NCBI GenBank assembly: GCA_964615185.1 | Contig: CAZTOS010000009.1 | Location: forward strand, 1-45,631 | Direction: 5' to 3' | Length of the DNA: 45,631 nt | From: an uncultured Thermococci archaeon | Lineage (GTDB): Archaea; Methanobacteriota_B; Thermococci; Thermococcales; Thermococcaceae | Shown: piece after piece, positions 38,813 to 45,042 of the stretch | Layout: each line of letters begins with the position of its first letter | Numbering within the stretch: position 1 is the first letter of the stretch | The notes under the pieces: generated by a model | Seen by the model: only the letters and a program-made list of their open reading frames with translations | The model's database searches: none | Told to the model about the DNA's origin: nothing | Translations under genes and position numbers: made by a program

Positions 38813-40000
38813 TCAAATGTTCGGTATTCCTAAGTTTTTCAATAATTGTTTCCAATTCTCTATAAGCTCAGTATATGTTATTATTTCATATCCTCTGAGT
38901 TTTTCATTTAAACTTTTGAGTCTTCTCTTTTCTTCATTAGACATCTTAGAACTTAGCCCTATTATTAAACGCCCCTCAACATTATTTACTGAAATATTAG
39001 GCAACTGTTGACGTAGAATTAGTATGTTCTCTCTAATTTTATCCAAATAATTTTCAATCTGAGCTTTTGCTTCTCTAAGCTCCTTACTTTCACAGAGATT
39101 TTTTGTAAAAAGTTTTTTAGTAGGTGACTCAATTTCTACAACGATATATTTTCCATCTGGAGTCTCCACAATAAAATCTGGATACAAATCCTTCTTAATG
39201 TCTGGAATACGGAATTTTGGAAAAAGGTTCTTATATTCAATATATAAGAGACATGGATTTTGTTCTAAAAATTCTTGTATTTCGTTTTCACTCACATTCT
39301 CTTTATGCACTAATTTTTCAAATTCCAATAAGGTACCTACTAGTCCTAGTACTCTATCAACAATCCCCTTTTGAAGCAGGTCCCTAATAACCTTCTCTCC
39401 TTTGAGGTATCTATTGAATTCTTGTTCAGCATGAAACTTTGCATTTCCTTCGTCAAAAAAGTCTTCGCTTTTTGTTTTAATAAGCCACAAAAATGGAAAT
39501 CTCTTGATAACTTTATTTCCATAAATATCTACACAACCAATTCCAACATCTATTACTTTTATATCAGCACCTTCATGTAATTTAATAAAACTTGACATGT
39601 CCCCAATTATGTTCGGAATTGATCTCGCAAAGCAAGAGAGGATATCTGCATATTTTTGATAAAAGTTTAAGTGAAACAGATTAATAGACTCTATCACTAT
39701 GGATTTACCCTTAACTTCAAAAAGTGTTTCCAATTTCCCATTCATTTCGGGGAATATCACTTTCTCAATAGAAGTACCAACTCTCCTAATTTCCATTTCC
39801 CATCTATCTCTTTTTTCTAAAAATTCGATTACAACCCCATCATTTCCAATAATAACAACTATATAATATGGATGAATGAGATAGTCTGGGAAAATTAATT
39901 TTGGCTCTATGAATCTTGAGTATGTAGAAACTTTCTCTTGGAGAGTTTTTATGAACATATCTACAAACTTTCTGACTTTTTCTTCTGATAATCCTGTCAT
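38813..40000 (-). CDS. Shedu (SduA/DUF4263)-like anti-viral nuclease with an unknown N-terminal domain
   Basis: The C-terminal ~165 aa read E..IQEFLEQNP.LL...PDF.....VVEIESP...LF.....S.EL..A..QI.NY...GRLIIG......L.......IITY.EL. The DNA is visibly AT-richer than its neighbours. Confidence 0.8.
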   Translation of the reverse strand: MTGLSEEKVRKFVDMFIKTLQEKVSTYSRFIEPKLIFPDYLIHPYYIVVIIGNDGVVIEFLEKRDRWEMEIRRVGTSIEKVIFPEMNGKLETLFEVKGKSIVIESINLFHLNFYQKYADILSCFARSIPNIIGDMSSFIKLHEGADIKVIDVGIGCVDIYGNKVIKRFPFLWLIKTKSEDFFDEGNAKFHAEQEFNRYLKGEKVIRDLLQKGIVDRVLGLVGTLLEFEKLVHKENVSENEIQEFLEQNPCLLYIEYKNLFPKFRIPDIKKDLYPDFIVETPDGKYIVVEIESPTKKLFTKNLCESKELREAKAQIENYLDKIRENILILRQQLPNISVNNVEGRLIIGLSSKMSNEEKRRLKSLNEKLRGYEIITYTELIENWKQLLKNLGIPNI

Positions 40001-40093: not shown

Positions 40094-41359
40094 ATGGACT
40101 GCACGAAAGATTACTGCGTCAAAGATATTAACTTGGCTCCGGAAGGGGAGAAGAAAATTGACTGGGTTTCTCGCTTTATGCCCGTCCTCCAGAATATAAG
40201 AAAAGACTTTGAGAAAGAAAAGCCGTTTAAAGGCATTAAGATTACTACTTGCTTGCACTTGGAGATGAAGACTGCTTTTCTCCTTCTCACACTAAAAGCC
40301 GGAGGAGCGAAGGTTTCAGCAACTGCAAGCAATCCTCTAAGTACTCAAGATGATGTTGTCGCGGCTTTAGCCAAAAATGGAGTAAAGGTTTATGCCATAA
40401 GAGGGGAAAGCAGGGAAGAGTACTATGAGTTCATGCACAAGGCCCTTGATATAGAACCAAACATCCTCATAGATGATGGGGCAGACATGATAAGCGTTGT
40501 CCACAGAGAGAGACAAGAACTCATTGACAACATCTGGGGAGCAAGCGAGGAAACGACAACGGGAGTTATCCGCTTAAGGGCGATGGAAAAAGATGGAGTG
40601 CTTAGATTCCCAATCATAGCTGTCAATGATTCCTATACGAAGTATTTATTCGACAATCGCTATGGAACTGGCCAGTCAACGTGGGACGGCATAATAAGAA
40701 CTACCAACCTTCTTGTAGCGGGCAAAAACGTCGTTGTCGTCGGCTATGGCTGGTGCGGAAGGGGAATAGCAATGAGGGCAAGAGGATTTGGAGCGACGGT
40801 TATAGTGGTTGAAGTTGATCCAATTAGGGCATTGGAAGCAAGGATGGATGGTTTTTTGGTCATGCCAATGCATAAAGCTGCAAAAGTCGGAGACATTTTC
40901 ATAACGGCAACCGGTGATATAAACTGCATCCGCAAAGAGCATTTTGAAGTTATGAAGGACGGAGTGATTTTAGCCAATGCTGGGCATTTTGATGTTGAGA
41001 TTTCAAAGCCTGATTTAGAGTCTTTAGCTGTTGAGATCAGCAACCCAAGGGCTAACATAACTGAATACAAGCTCAAAGATGGGAGAAGATTATACCTCCT
41101 TGCGGAAGGGCGTTTGGTAAACTTAGCAGCAGCAGACGGACATCCAGCTGAAATTATGGACATGAGCTTTGCTCTGCAAGCCATGGCGGCTAAATACATC
41201 AGGGATAATCATGAGAAGCTTGAGCCTAAAGTTTACGTTTTGCCAAGAGAAATTGATGAGATGGTGGCGAGGATTAAGCTTAAAGCCATGGGTATTGAGA
41301 TTGAAGAGCTAACGGAAGAGCAAAAGAGGTATTTGGAAAGCTGGGAGCATGGAACTTAG
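40094..41359 (+). CDS. ahcY: Adenosylhomocysteinase
   Basis: [43 protein letters not shown] and GRLVNL motifs. Confidence 0.98.
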
Positions 41360-41386
41360 TTGAGTTTTGTTCTATTCTTTTATCAC

Positions 41387-41593
41387 CTAAAGACCCCAGA
41401 TGTTCCCAATGATCCAGATAACAACCGCTCCAAAAATCATATCAATTGCCATCCCGACAATCTTGAGGTTGGGATGTTTTGGTTCAAAGAGTTTTTGAAA
41501 TCCGGAAATGGACAGATCAAAGAACAAAAAGGCAAAGAACCACCATAAAAATAAATAAGGGGGCTCCAAAGATAGAGTATTCCTGAATAACAC
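41387..41593 (-). CDS. Small hydrophobic membrane protein, probably 5'-truncated
   Basis: Two TM segments. The frame continues upstream without a start (ESYLLAAGILT) up to a TAG near 41627, which suggests a remnant of a longer gene. Confidence 0.5.
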   Translation of the reverse strand: MLFRNTLSLEPPYLFLWWFFAFLFFDLSISGFQKLFEPKHPNLKIVGMAIDMIFGAVVIWIIGNIWGL

Positions 41594-41702
41594 TGTGAGA
41601 ATCCCTGCTGCAAGGAGGTAACTTTCCTATACGCTTTAAATACTGCACTTTGAGCACCCTATCTTGAAAGCTATTCTAAAGAGAGGAGCATAGTTGACAC
41701 AC

Positions 41703-42104
41703 CTAACTTTCCCTTCTCTTTTCATAGAAACTCATTATAAGCAAGATTACTACGACCATGCTTCCCATAAGAAAAGGTTTTGCTGATACAAGTAATGGCT
41801 TATCAGGTTTTATTATGAAGACTGGCCCAATCCAGTTGGTCACAGAATATAATATCAAAAATGAAAGCAGGAAAGTAGCTACACCCACTAATCCTGAGAT
41901 TTCTTTATAAGAGGAGTGTCGCTCGAGGTAGAGTATGACGAATAAAGGAAGCAACGTTAGTATAAGTGTTTCCGTTAGAGAGATTTTCATCGAAATTAGT
42001 AAAGAAAAACCCATTTTAATCCCTTCGACAATCCCAGTGAGGAAAAATATTGAAACGAAAATAAAAAATAATATCAAATTAAAATCATTTTTTGCTTTTT
42101 TCAT
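41703..42104 (-). CDS. Four-TM membrane protein (candidate immunity protein)
   Basis: 133 aa, highly hydrophobic; ATGA overlap with the upstream Cys-rich gene. Confidence 0.7.
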   Translation of the reverse strand: MKKAKNDFNLILFFIFVSIFFLTGIVEGIKMGFSLLISMKISLTETLILTLLPLFVILYLERHSSYKEISGLVGVATFLLSFLILYSVTNWIGPVFIIKPDKPLLVSAKPFLMGSMVVVILLIMSFYEKRRES

Positions 42105-42793
42105 GGAGCATCACCATAGTCCACGCATGTAGTGCCCTCCTCTTCGCAAAATTCTGCCAGACAATATGGACACCACGCCATTACACATGCCAAAAAGAAA
42201 CCTATACCTCCACTAAGTGCCCATACACAGGATAAACAGCACACCCTTATACTCGCTATGTCGTATTCACAACAATAGTCAGTACAATATTGGAATTCTC
42301 CACAGTCGGAATTACTTGAACACTCATGTCTACATGTGCCTGTTGGTGTAATTGCTCCGTTTGTTGTTAATGCTTCTGTTTTTATTTTGCCGTTTTGAAT
42401 TCCTAATAAGAATGCTCTTGTCTTAATTCCTTGTATTGGTTTTGAGAATTCGTAATAAGCTATTACGTGCTTGCCGTCTTTCAGGGGAATTCCCATAGCA
42501 AGCATGGTTATCTTCTCACCATTATAGTCTAAGGTGTGCTTCACTATTTTAACGTTTTTATAATCAATCTCCCAGGGTTTTGCCAATCCTCTAATATCCT
42601 TGCTTAATACCGCTTTAAAGAACACATGAATCCTTGACCAGTTCTCTGCAGTTTTACTAACAGGCTTAACTTCCCTAAAAGGATTCACGCATCCCTTAAC
42701 TTCTGGAAGCTTCGGATTGTTCAAGGCATACGCTGCATATGCTCCAACCACCAACAAAACCACAAAAATGCCCAACAATGTCCTCTTCCTCAT
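42101..42793 (-). CDS. Secreted/membrane-anchored precursor with a Cys-rich C-terminal peptide (halocin C8-like archaeocin candidate)
   Basis: Signal/anchor MRKRTLLGIFVVLLVVGAYAAYA, about 130-aa basic pro-region, and 14 Cys in the last 77 aa around a hydrophobic core. Confidence 0.7.
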   Translation of the reverse strand: MRKRTLLGIFVVLLVVGAYAAYALNNPKLPEVKGCVNPFREVKPVSKTAENWSRIHVFFKAVLSKDIRGLAKPWEIDYKNVKIVKHTLDYNGEKITMLAMGIPLKDGKHVIAYYEFSKPIQGIKTRAFLLGIQNGKIKTEALTTNGAITPTGTCRHECSSNSDCGEFQYCTDYCCEYDIASIRVCCLSCVWALSGGIGFFLACVMAWCPYCLAEFCEEEGTTCVDYGDAP

Positions 42794-42996
42794 TCGCCCC
42801 CCCCCAACGGATTATCATATAAATTTTGCAATTAAAAAATATAAAAATTTCGTGAACTAAAAGTTTAAAACTTTACAAAATTCCAAAAAGAAACTAGTAT
42901 TAAACCAAAAACAATTTTGAATAGTAATCATATCACAGAGTTCTAAAAAACAAAGATGAAGCAATACTTAAAACTCCCCACAGCCTACTTTCGGGC

Positions 42997-43705
42997 ATGA
43001 ACTGGCAATCTGCCTTGAACAAATTCCTCAAGGATTGGAAAGACAAGGACTTTGTCGAAGCAGTTCTGCTCACAAGGAGTTATGCTGTTGGATTACAAAC
43101 CAAATACTCTGATGTAGATGTTTACATCGTGCTTTCTGATAAAGTCGAATACTTTGCAAACCCGGTAAAACAAATTAGACACTACTTTGAAAAAGAATTC
43201 AAGCAAAATAAAAGGAGTACTACAAGAATCATCACAATTGGCAAAGTCCTCTTTGATAAGACAGGAATAGCTGAAGAACTCAAAAAAGAAGCGCTGAAAT
43301 ACATGAAAAAGCCCTTTGAGAAACCTGATGAAGTTTGGGTAGAGATTGCCAAATACTTTCTCTGGGATTAGCTACCTTTATTACCTAACGCTTATCAAGG
43401 CTCTTGAAGTTTACCCAAAGTTCCTCTGTGTTGAGGCCCCTCCAGCAAGCAAAGTTTATCGCCTCTTTACGGATGAGAAGTTTAGAAAAGCCTACATGTT
43501 CGAAGAATTTCCAGACAAAGAATTTGTTGGGCTGTTCCTGAGTGCTATGAAAAGTAAGGAACTAAAAAACCTCGAATTACTTATAAAGTACATCTTTAAT
43601 AAAATGGGTGGCTTCAACATTAATGGCTGGCGGCTGAGAACAAAAACCGAAAATATAAGTCAGCTGACTTCAATCCTCTCAACAAGTTTTCTTCGAATTT
43701 CATAA
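42997..43705 (+). pseudogene. Nucleotidyltransferase-domain gene split by a frameshift or deletion
   Basis: The first frame has LLTRSYAVG....SDVDVYIV (GS motif altered to RS) and EYFANP and stops at 43371. A second frame carries the apparent C-terminus (...FNKMGGFNINGWRLRTK). Confidence 0.7.
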
Positions 43706-45042
43706 ATCTTTTCCTTAAAATTCTCAGAGTACTCTCTGAGTCTTGCTATTTCAGAAAGCTCAAGACCTTCTTTGTATTCTCTCGCAGCCTTCTCTAAGTT
43801 TCCCTCTTTGATGCTTTTTTCTGCATTTTTATTTTTTCTATTAAAGAACTCCAAAAGATGGTCTCTAAAGTTAACCGTTATCAACCTAAGTGTGATATTC
43901 AAAAAAAGCTTGGAACGTAGCTCCACATTGTCAATATTCTCTGCTTCCTCTATTGCTTTTTCAAACAATATATTGTACCCATCCACATCTTTGTTGAAAA
44001 GCTCCAAACCTATTAAAGAGAAAGCATTTCCTCTGAAATAGCTGCTTTTAATATGTTTAACAACAAGGAGTGCTTTTTTAAATTCTCCCTTTTCAGCCAG
44101 AGCAACACTCATATTATTCAAAGCAAGATCTTTATGGATTGGATCTGTGATATTATTAATAATCTCCAGCACTTTTTCATAATATCCTTCTTTCATAAGC
44201 GTGCTTACACTTAGAGCCCAGAGCTTAGATATTCTTTTTCTATCTTTTATCATGGATATTAACTCCGAAATTCTGGACAAATCCCCCTTTTTTAAAAGTC
44301 CCAGAAAAGCGGACTCTATGACATGCATTCGGGCATCTTCTACTTTTAGCTTTTCTGCAAGTTTTAGACTCTCATCAACTTCTCCAGCTTCTGCAAGTCG
44401 TGAGATAACCTCTCCAAAAGTAATCTCTCTCGTCATCATATTATCTATTTCAGCAGCACTCTTCAGGGCTTTGGAGAACATAAGAGAGTAAAGTGGAATT
44501 TGAGCTTCTGCCAGTACCTTTCCGATTTCACTAAAAACTATCGCCTTATAATAGGGATCTGAGATTTTTTCTGCAACTTTAATTGCACCTTCAATATTCT
44601 CACTTTTGAGGAGAGTTTCCAATAAATGCATCACTGCAGCAATTCTATCTTCTCTGAGATCTATCCTAAGGATTAGATCTAACACTTCCTCAATAAGTTT
44701 AAGGGCAAGATCCTCATTAAAAGTAACAGCTTCAATTGCTACGTCTGGTAAAACCATTGCTTTGTATTTAGGATTAGCGATTTTCTCAGTCCCATTTATT
44801 GCCATCTGAATAAGTCCCTTATATAGCTCAATATCCATATCTCTGACTGCAATAGCTAACCTCAGAAGAGATAGAATCCTTTCCATATCATCATGTATAG
44901 TATCAATAATATCGAATCCCAAAGACAGCAATTGCTGATTATCACCTGAAATCTTCAGAAGGGTAGCGATAACCTTGAGTTTTTCACTTGGATTGCTGAT
45001 ATGGGATAGTAAAGCCAGAATATCATCAATTGATCTTTCCAT
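43660..45042 (-). CDS. Alpha-helical (TPR/HEAT-like) repeat protein
   Basis: Recurrent motif A..I.D...(K/R)......I...L...G, for example AEKISDPYYKAIVFSEIG, INNITDPIHKDLAL and AENIDNVELRSKLF. Confidence 0.75.
   Translation of the reverse strand: MERSIDDILALLSHISNPSEKLKVIATLLKISGDNQQLLSLGFDIIDTIHDDMERILSLLRLAIAVRDMDIELYKGLIQMAINGTEKIANPKYKAMVLPDVAIEAVTFNEDLALKLIEEVLDLILRIDLREDRIAAVMHLLETLLKSENIEGAIKVAEKISDPYYKAIVFSEIGKVLAEAQIPLYSLMFSKALKSAAEIDNMMTREITFGEVISRLAEAGEVDESLKLAEKLKVEDARMHVIESAFLGLLKKGDLSRISELISMIKDRKRISKLWALSVSTLMKEGYYEKVLEIINNITDPIHKDLALNNMSVALAEKGEFKKALLVVKHIKSSYFRGNAFSLIGLELFNKDVDGYNILFEKAIEEAENIDNVELRSKLFLNITLRLITVNFRDHLLEFFNRKNKNAEKSIKEGNLEKAAREYKEGLELSEIARLREYSENFKEKIYEIRRKLVERIEVS

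Follow-up and report, generated by a model that had tools for sequence, protein, structure and literature searches.

We found that a two-gene locus on the minus strand of contig CAZTOS010000009.1 from an uncultured Thermococci archaeon (assembly GCA_964615185.1, positions 1 to 45,631, 45,631 nucleotides, the whole of which is called here the window) is probably one allele of a polymorphic toxin-immunity pair, a reading to which we give roughly three chances in four. The first gene encodes a precursor whose C-terminal cysteine-rich end, the tip, would be an exported disulfide peptide toxin acting on kin, and the second one a small membrane protein that would be its antidote. The architecture of the locus, its polymorphism, the exchange of the tip together with the membrane gene and the retention of orphan membrane genes were observed in the genomes compared. 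An earlier note on this DNA had proposed an exported disulfide-rich precursor with a cognate membrane immunity gene. The genomic tests agreed with this proposal (hypervariable tip, even cysteine number, co-exchange). They gave no support to a membership of the halocin C8 family, with which the note had compared the peptide, and did not show that a third open reading frame (ORF) is an orphan immunity gene. The window is contig C9 of the genome G000 (2.26 Mb, 95.6% complete), in which the precursor P0001 is present as a single copy. The features of the pair are:

42101..42793, minus strand: precursor gene P0001, 230 aa, with predicted signal peptide, basic pro-domain and acidic cysteine-rich tip (protein search, alignment, model)
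42725..42793, minus strand: predicted hydrophobic signal peptide, residues 1-23 (sequence; model helix 2-24)
42689..42691, minus strand: C35 within a GCVNPF motif, invariant cysteine, unpaired (alignment)
42344..42688, minus strand: conserved, net basic pro-domain, residues 36-150 (alignment, model)
42104..42334, minus strand: variable tip, residues 154-230, 77 aa, 14 cysteines, net charge -10, 8.5 kDa (alignment, model)
41703..42104, minus strand: P0002, 133-aa four-helix membrane protein, putative immunity protein (ATGA overlap, co-variation)

The ATGA overlap between the two ORFs is as the earlier note described it, and so is the four-helix protein, with four hydrophobic segments in hydropathy windows and no cysteine. 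The opposition of a basic pro-domain to an acidic C-terminal peptide was likewise confirmed, residues 24-153 having a net charge of +10 and a pI of 9.8 against -10 for the tip. The 14 cysteines claimed for this peptide were also found, while its quoted end lay seven residues short, the protein ending in VDYGDAP and the tip covering 77 aa from C154. A protein search gave 53 matches among 185 candidates, 44 of which were aligned, the nine short or partial ones being left out. Across these 44 homologues residues 1-145 are conserved and the tip retains its cysteines and little else. Y19, Y22, C35 and P38 are invariant, and the N-terminal helix and the residues following it are well conserved. C35, the 15th cysteine of the protein, is present in 44/44 homologues, and the whole-protein cysteine count is odd in 42 of these. 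Residues 1-23 were read by eye as a putative Sec-type signal peptide with an A-x-A site, and P0001 has no twin-arginine motif.

The AlphaFold model of P0001 (pLDDT 86.9, pTM 0.80) presents a pro-domain made of one strand, two helices and a six-stranded meander, followed by a tip in which two predicted strands (168-177 and 216-225) frame a hydrophobic helical stretch (179-214). Foldseek returned no PDB match at E<=0.001, and the best VIA match, with a Z of 5.0 (rmsd 3.2, 88 aligned residues), is a generic sheet, which is no proof of a new fold. Pfam/NCBIfam scans of P0001, of the 44 aligned members and of 34 + 39 distant matches gave no defining family. A single hit of one member to TIGR04292 (heavy_Cys_CGP, E 0.013) was rejected as compositional.

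The tip is hypervariable apart from its cysteines, which excludes the invariant tip that the earlier note had named as evidence against its proposal. Outside the cysteines identity is 31% in the tip, compared to 63% in the pro-domain, and the tip length ranges from 69 to 89 aa. The cysteine number is even (14, 16, 18 or 20) in 71 of the 74 distinct tips, and each of the three odd-count tips has lost one otherwise constant cysteine. C186 and C208 are jointly present in 67 tips and jointly absent in seven, neither ever occurring alone, and the positions 181/215 and 193/200 exhibit the same trend of joint gain and loss, although less cleanly. This pattern fits disulfides rather than a fixed metal site. 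The central GG hairpin that had been noticed in the tip is not a conserved feature, its loop varying in length and sequence.

The membrane gene tracks the tip and not the pro-domain. We collected 93 loci, corresponding to 70 distinct ones, of which 51 carry a tip, in 23 tip groups. A called membrane ORF starts within 60 nt of the precursor stop at 40 loci, and when the frames of ten other loci were read, hydrophobic or broken ORFs were found there in most. Using the 39 loci with an intact pro-domain (741 pairs, tip identity counted outside the cysteines), the first membrane gene belongs to the same family in 46/49 pairs with a tip identity of at least 50% and in 5/692 other pairs. For pro-domains at least 80% identical, the family is shared in 20 of 31 pairs. 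In partial correlation the membrane gene follows the tip (0.69) and hardly the pro-domain (0.07); in a set of 26 loci the two values are 0.69 and 0.10, respectively. The check proposed in the earlier note, that homologues keep the pro-domain while the tip and the downstream membrane gene co-vary, thus gave a positive answer, and the coupling of a cognate membrane gene to the precursor is borne out by their common exchange.

This exchange can be followed in single pairs of loci. Between L004 and L040, identity is 94% for the pro-domain, 25% for the tip and 24% for the membrane protein; between L023 and L040 it is 52%, 73% and 46%, respectively. On the well-supported branches of the pro-domain tree, the membrane families TM4, TM9, TM10 and TM13 require 4, 3, 2 and 2 forced changes. 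At the DNA level, pro-domain identity of 81-100% falls to background 280-340 nt before the stop in pairs such as L004/L075, L018/L029, L039/L046 and L001/L043, i.e. at the border between pro-domain and tip, and stays low through the membrane gene. Recombination at this border therefore puts new units of tip and membrane gene in the place of old ones. A contig of run X4 follows the pro-domain of the window and departs into other sequence at position 42423, which suggests a second allele within the same sample.

The membrane proteins are approximately 90-140 aa long and nearly all helical, with 3-4 helices. None has a signalling domain, and they make up many families that resemble one another slightly or not at all; TM0, TM3, TM5 and TM21 are remote homologues of each other. 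P0002 itself was found in only 2/97 genomes, both with this tip, and its similarity to TM5 and TM3 is weak (score 26, reversed-control maximum 23). A complex prediction of the tip with P0002 scored 0.00; the controls did not fold and the fold of the partner is uncertain, and this score is used neither way. Taken with the co-variation, P0002 is likely the specific antidote and is our candidate immunity protein.

Replacement leaves traces, namely tip stumps and old membrane genes downstream. At least two downstream membrane ORFs are present at 15/51 tip loci, and the families TM0, TM2, TM3 and TM10 stand first behind one tip and second or third behind another. Tip stumps were detected in 7/50 downstream regions (nine matches), mostly just ahead of a further membrane gene, and none on the opposite strand of the same regions. 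A stump match at L045 was dropped, being located inside a membrane gene, and TM15, TM18 and TM25 were removed from the array counts as apparently antisense frames of neighbours, TM15 and TM25 mapping opposite ahcY and a nucleotidyltransferase gene.

Some genomes have lost the precursor and kept the membrane genes. We examined the ends of ahcY, the gene for S-adenosylhomocysteine hydrolase that adjoins the locus in the window, at the best 30 of 90 sites by similarity. G089, G075 and G096 (99% complete) possess membrane genes there with no precursor match in the genome, and in G089 these are two intact membrane genes, accompanied by the 17 final codons of a tip. At L111, L113, L115 and L119 the precursor is internally deleted to its signal and the end of its tip, with the membrane gene intact. 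Additionally, a solitary membrane gene lies at C21:17519-17821 of G000, adjoining a 385-codon open frame not assigned to a family. This membrane gene shares 83% identity with the one that partners a divergent precursor in L117, and G000 has no such precursor.

From these data we propose the following course of action. Since no TatC was found in G000 (95.6% complete), export of P0001 is predicted to occur via Sec, while many distant homologues bear twin-arginine signals instead. The 14 cysteines of the tip would form seven disulfides, among them the pairs 186-208, 181-215 and 193-200 as nested staples across the helical hairpin, gained or lost together. The basic pro-domain (+10) would hold and mask the acidic tip (-10) until a protease cuts the linker around residues 147-153 and frees a peptide of 8.5 kDa, as the analogy with halocin C8 suggests. 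The hydrophobic hairpin would then enter the membrane of a neighbour, likely via a surface receptor because an acidic peptide would not readily lyse membranes at large, and in the producer the cognate membrane protein would neutralise the tip.

P0001 appears to work on the plan of halocin C8 without being a member of that family, to which the earlier note had likened it. The halocin C8 domain TIGR04449 (halocin_C8_dom) matched 0/44 members at E<=1, 0/34 distant matches and nothing in G000, with positive controls at other loci reaching 42-47 bits. The HalI-like N-domain PF22862 gave no HMM match (152 bits for a control Haloferax protein), nor did TIGR04450 in G000 or among the 44 members. By language-model features PF27906 and TIGR04450 (Gpos_C8-like) are the nearest named clusters at 0.86 and 0.80, below 0.9 and a lead only. 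The tips do not align either, the tip profile scoring 11.4 against C8-type tips compared to 9.9 for the reversed control, and 8.6 in a second comparison.

The pro-domain gave a different result. Against a group of Thermococcus proteins carrying TIGR04449, which likewise have no PF22862, the whole-profile comparison reached a probability of 86.8% (E 4.3e-6), and the pro-domain only scored 26.1 against 11.1 ± 2.2 for 60 shuffles (maximum 17.8) and 16.3 reversed. The narrow profile A1 alone reached only 3%; a protein in L117 bridges the P0001 family and these carriers. The model of a carrier (pLDDT 63) has secondary-structure elements in the same order as the P0001 pro-domain, and an Atlas structure match has a TM of 0.65 over 118 residues, its cluster sharing descriptors with the second match of P0001, so that the identity of the two Atlas clusters is judged from descriptors. 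These data give moderate support to a pro-domain common to P0001 and one group of Thermococcus TIGR04449 carriers. True TIGR04449 proteins occur at other loci in 7/133 genomes of the phylum. Two further Thermococcus families of cysteine-tipped precursors (L047-L067; ~320 aa and ~260-275 aa) were also noticed, several of them over the TIGR04449 cut-off, with variable tips and small membrane genes behind; at L049 a second, partial precursor copy bears another tip.

Halocin C8 and P0001 share a signal, a pro-domain and a C-terminal cysteine-rich tip, of ~76 aa in ProC8 according to two sources (bioRxiv 10.64898/2026.07.27.741052, PMC11509114). The tips differ in having ten cysteines in three haloarchaeal examples compared to 14-20 in the P0001 family, and in being modelled as all helical compared to strand-helix-strand here. 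Halocin C8 is exported by Tat, whereas P0001 lacks a twin-arginine motif and no TatC was found in its genome. Immunity is reported to reside in the pro-part (HalI) of halocin C8, while the separate co-varying gene and the orphan arrays of the present family point to allele-specific immunity. A hydrophobic gene of 68 aa also stands behind halocin C8-like genes of haloarchaea (L165:3440-3646, L166:3435-3641), so that the true C8 family may have separate membrane partners as well.

Other known systems resemble the P0001 family in part. Pore-forming colicins pair a hydrophobic helical hairpin with a specific membrane immunity protein of 3-4 helices, a likeness by analogy only, no sequence or fold match having been found. 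Contact-dependent inhibition (CDI) proteins, Rhs proteins and Vibrio type VI secretion system (T6SS) effectors have a constant N-terminal part, an exchangeable C-terminal tip, a cognate gene directly behind it, and displaced tip stumps and orphan genes downstream. They differ from P0001, in which the whole precursor has 230 aa, the tip is a putative disulfide peptide rather than an enzyme and no delivery machine stands alongside. An array pattern of this kind has been published as the signature of effector-immunity displacement in the Vibrio T6SS (PMC5361080). In the hypervariable VARTIG module of Thermococcales (PMC8416519), the C-terminus is variable and exchanged between strains, with specific membrane genes behind specific variants. 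VARTIG proteins are large Ig-domain proteins with no candidate toxin, while the P0001 family has a cysteine-rich peptide tip and another predicted fold, and Pfam scans of P0001 (230 aa) and its family gave no Ig family.

Close homologues named to genus come from Thermococcus, Pyrococcus and Palaeococcus, and named carriers are Thermococcus litoralis DSM 5473 (OCC_09164), T. siculi, Pyrococcus yayanosii and Palaeococcus ferrophilus. A first profile matched 48/97 Thermococcaceae genomes, including fragments and a few weak signal-peptide matches, and a broader profile with a stricter cut-off matched 41/96; the same broader profile matched 0/36 genomes from the other five families of the phylum. 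Among genomes the distribution is patchy. The neighbour genes, read from translations, vary by locus (ahcY, a TldD-like gene and others), so the cassette occupies several sites, the 3' end of ahcY being one of them. No relative was found in viral contigs, and plasmid searches with L056, P0092 and L048 found nothing.

Beyond Thermococcales, a representative search gave 42 matches with the same architecture and often a twin-arginine signal, among them a Rubrobacteraceae protein and plasmid genes of Curtobacterium and Thermomicrobium roseum. The Curtobacterium gene sits behind a MauE/DoxX gene. The T. roseum homologue (L162:5548-9584, plasmid NC_011961) scores 82 bits to profile A2 without being an A2 member. 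Upstream of it lie genes for an S8 peptidase, an MFS transporter and a response regulator. Five small hydrophobic genes stand downstream, and 3/4 of the gaps contain cysteine-rich tip remnants that the gene table of the record does not list. Long homologues (P0066, P0086, P0094-P0149) have, ahead of the twin-arginine signal, an extra N-terminal domain, which starts with a DxxCxxC motif in 56/58 of them. This motif is presumably typical of DCC-type thiol-disulfide oxidoreductases, an assignment for which Pfam gave no confirmation. Some of the long homologues have basic tips instead of acidic ones. P0076 and P0079 were dropped as homologues, being cadherin and FG-GAP repeat proteins.

Several observations weigh against a toxin-immunity pair. 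Classical antimicrobial peptides are cationic, whereas each of the 74 tips is acidic, and a 19-residue stretch with membrane-spanning hydropathy occurs in only 50 of them. The tip is unlike that of halocin C8, the sole characterised relative, and the direct link of the pro-domain to haloarchaeal HalI (three sequences only), in register at the domain start, is not significant (score 13.8, the highest shuffle reaching 15.5). The Thermococcales copies inspected have no conserved neighbour coding for a protease or a transporter. In the co-variation, three pairs with similar tips differ in membrane family (L032 against its group), TM0, TM11 and TM17 form one clade each on the pro-domain tree and are uninformative on swapping, and the permutation p-values overstate significance, the loci being related by kinship; since kin are not independent, the swaps weigh more than the p-values. 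Finally, a polymorphic signal and its receptor would co-vary alike.

This last point is the substance of the first alternative, a kin-recognition or signalling pair, in which each strain would present its own tip as a pheromone or surface badge, with the membrane protein as the receptor, so as to aggregate or to choose a partner for DNA exchange, and no cell would be killed. It predicts the same co-variation of tip and membrane gene and the same cassette exchange. Acidic disulfide-rich peptides act as pheromones in ciliates, and self/non-self recognition is one of three hypotheses offered for VARTIG (PMC8416519). Nevertheless, we consider this alternative unlikely. The small helical proteins of ~90-140 aa, in many unlike families and devoid of signalling domains, look like immunity proteins, intact membrane genes often outlast a precursor that is broken or gone, and the pro-domain is common to carriers of a known toxin domain.

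Less probable still, P0001 would stay uncleaved and anchored in the membrane as a surface protein, its variable tip serving in action by contact or in escape from viruses, and the membrane protein would be its dedicated assembly partner. The good conservation of the N-terminal helix and the residues after it speaks for an anchor, as do a model that packs tip and pro-domain as one unit (pTM 0.80) and the failure to identify a protease or a cleavage site. However, a protein needed for assembly should vanish with its client and should not accumulate in arrays, and many distant homologues have Tat signals; the contact-dependent toxin form of this alternative is the toxin-immunity pair with a different delivery. 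A cysteine-rich protein binding metal or an Fe-S cluster (storage, detoxification, redox) with a membrane partner is suggested by the acidity of the tip, by its 14 cysteines within 77 residues and by a habitat in anoxic vents rich in metal, but is very improbable. The tip is not invariant, and its cysteine number, 14 to 20, changes by two at a time as pairs are gained or lost. Family scans matched no ferredoxin or metallothionein family, the distribution is patchy, and the MauE/DoxX neighbour in Curtobacterium and the DxxCxxC motif of the long homologues both point to disulfide handling.

Little is settled about the ways in which hyperthermophilic archaea combat or recognise one another. The P0001 family offers a two-gene, allele-specific prediction in culturable strains, and it joins microcin-like disulfide peptides with polymorphic cassette exchange and orphan immunity arrays, which are usually kept apart. 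A wider proposal, on which we are evenly divided, is that of a cross-domain class of miniature polymorphic toxins, present also in thermophilic and soil bacteria, whose small common carrier domain would bring out two or more unrelated sorts of disulfide peptide, among them the C8 type and the P0001 type. In Thermococcales, strains would be engaged in an arms race, with over 20 types of tip, matching immunity proteins, arrays of displaced cassettes and antidote-only non-producers. If this wider proposal is true, the locus would encode the first testable archaeocin of Thermococcales, and nature would have made in the family a collection of disulfide peptides that fold extracellularly in anoxic vents. 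In the literature searched we found no characterised archaeocin of Thermococcales and no description of the P0001 family; a listing in an earlier survey is possible, and novelty is provisional. A 2026 preprint reports subtilosin A homologues in Thermococcus and C8 homologues defined by TIGR04449, and its accessible part does not mention the P0001 family, which escapes surveys built on TIGR04449 such as this one, where the methods called for that domain (bioRxiv 10.64898/2026.07.27.741052).

Around the pair, the window contains the following features:

41387..41660 (about), minus strand: eroded membrane gene of 2-3 helices, the third ORF (comparison with intact relatives)
42797..42829, minus strand: TATA-like box at 42817-42823, purine-rich stretch upstream of it, and G-run as ribosome-binding site ahead of the start codon (by eye)
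40094..41359, plus strand: ahcY, S-adenosylhomocysteine hydrolase, convergent flank (family scan, site comparison)
42997..43705, plus strand: broken nucleotidyltransferase gene, divergent flank, outside the system (PF01909; intact relative)

The third ORF is eroded, as the earlier note had seen: compared with its intact relatives of 86-91 aa, it has lost the upstream ribosome-binding stretch and has a 1-nt insertion near its 5' end, and runs X3 and X4 exhibit a different 87-nt deletion in the same ORF. As the orphan immunity gene of the note's further description it is a weak candidate. The family occurs in 5/97 genomes, each time beside the ahcY end or within this cassette. At none of the 51 tip loci does it stand first behind the precursor, and it is unlike all other membrane families. 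The ORF could be a remnant left by a tip not yet sampled, or a passenger with no link to the system. At L095 the final 24 nt of ahcY recur inside the cassette (21/24 matching), 362 nt from the true end, and bracket this family, a possible integration scar. The third ORF of the window has no such duplicated ahcY end beside it, and the arrangement is limited to L095.

The pseudogene reported at the flank is real, the nucleotidyltransferase gene having a 15-codon deletion, a stop and a frameshift in comparison with an intact 250-aa relative. The AT-rich flanks reported with it exist on one side, the GC content being 30% in the upstream intergenic DNA and 44% in ahcY, the downstream flank; it is 33% in the four-helix gene, 39-44% in the precursor gene and 40.6% in the genome. 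In a separate study a contig of run X2 has zero differences from the window over 41333-42354, so that the eroded ORF is no assembly error. The runs carrying matching contigs are hydrothermal vent metagenomes, and among the runs listed no RNA dataset carries the locus. A scan for sigma-70 promoters and terminators stayed at chance level and is unsuited to archaea.

Directly upstream of ahcY, the minus strand (38813-40000, 31% GC) encodes a 395-aa protein whose residues 236-380 match the C-terminal nuclease domain of Shedu SduA (PF14082, 90 bits) and whose N-terminal part is unassigned, likely an acquired anti-virus gene. On the other side (43660-45042, minus strand) lies the gene of a 460-aa helical repeat protein, with weak TPR scores under the cut-off, and a similar ORF stands directly behind ahcY in G095, at a site without the cassette.

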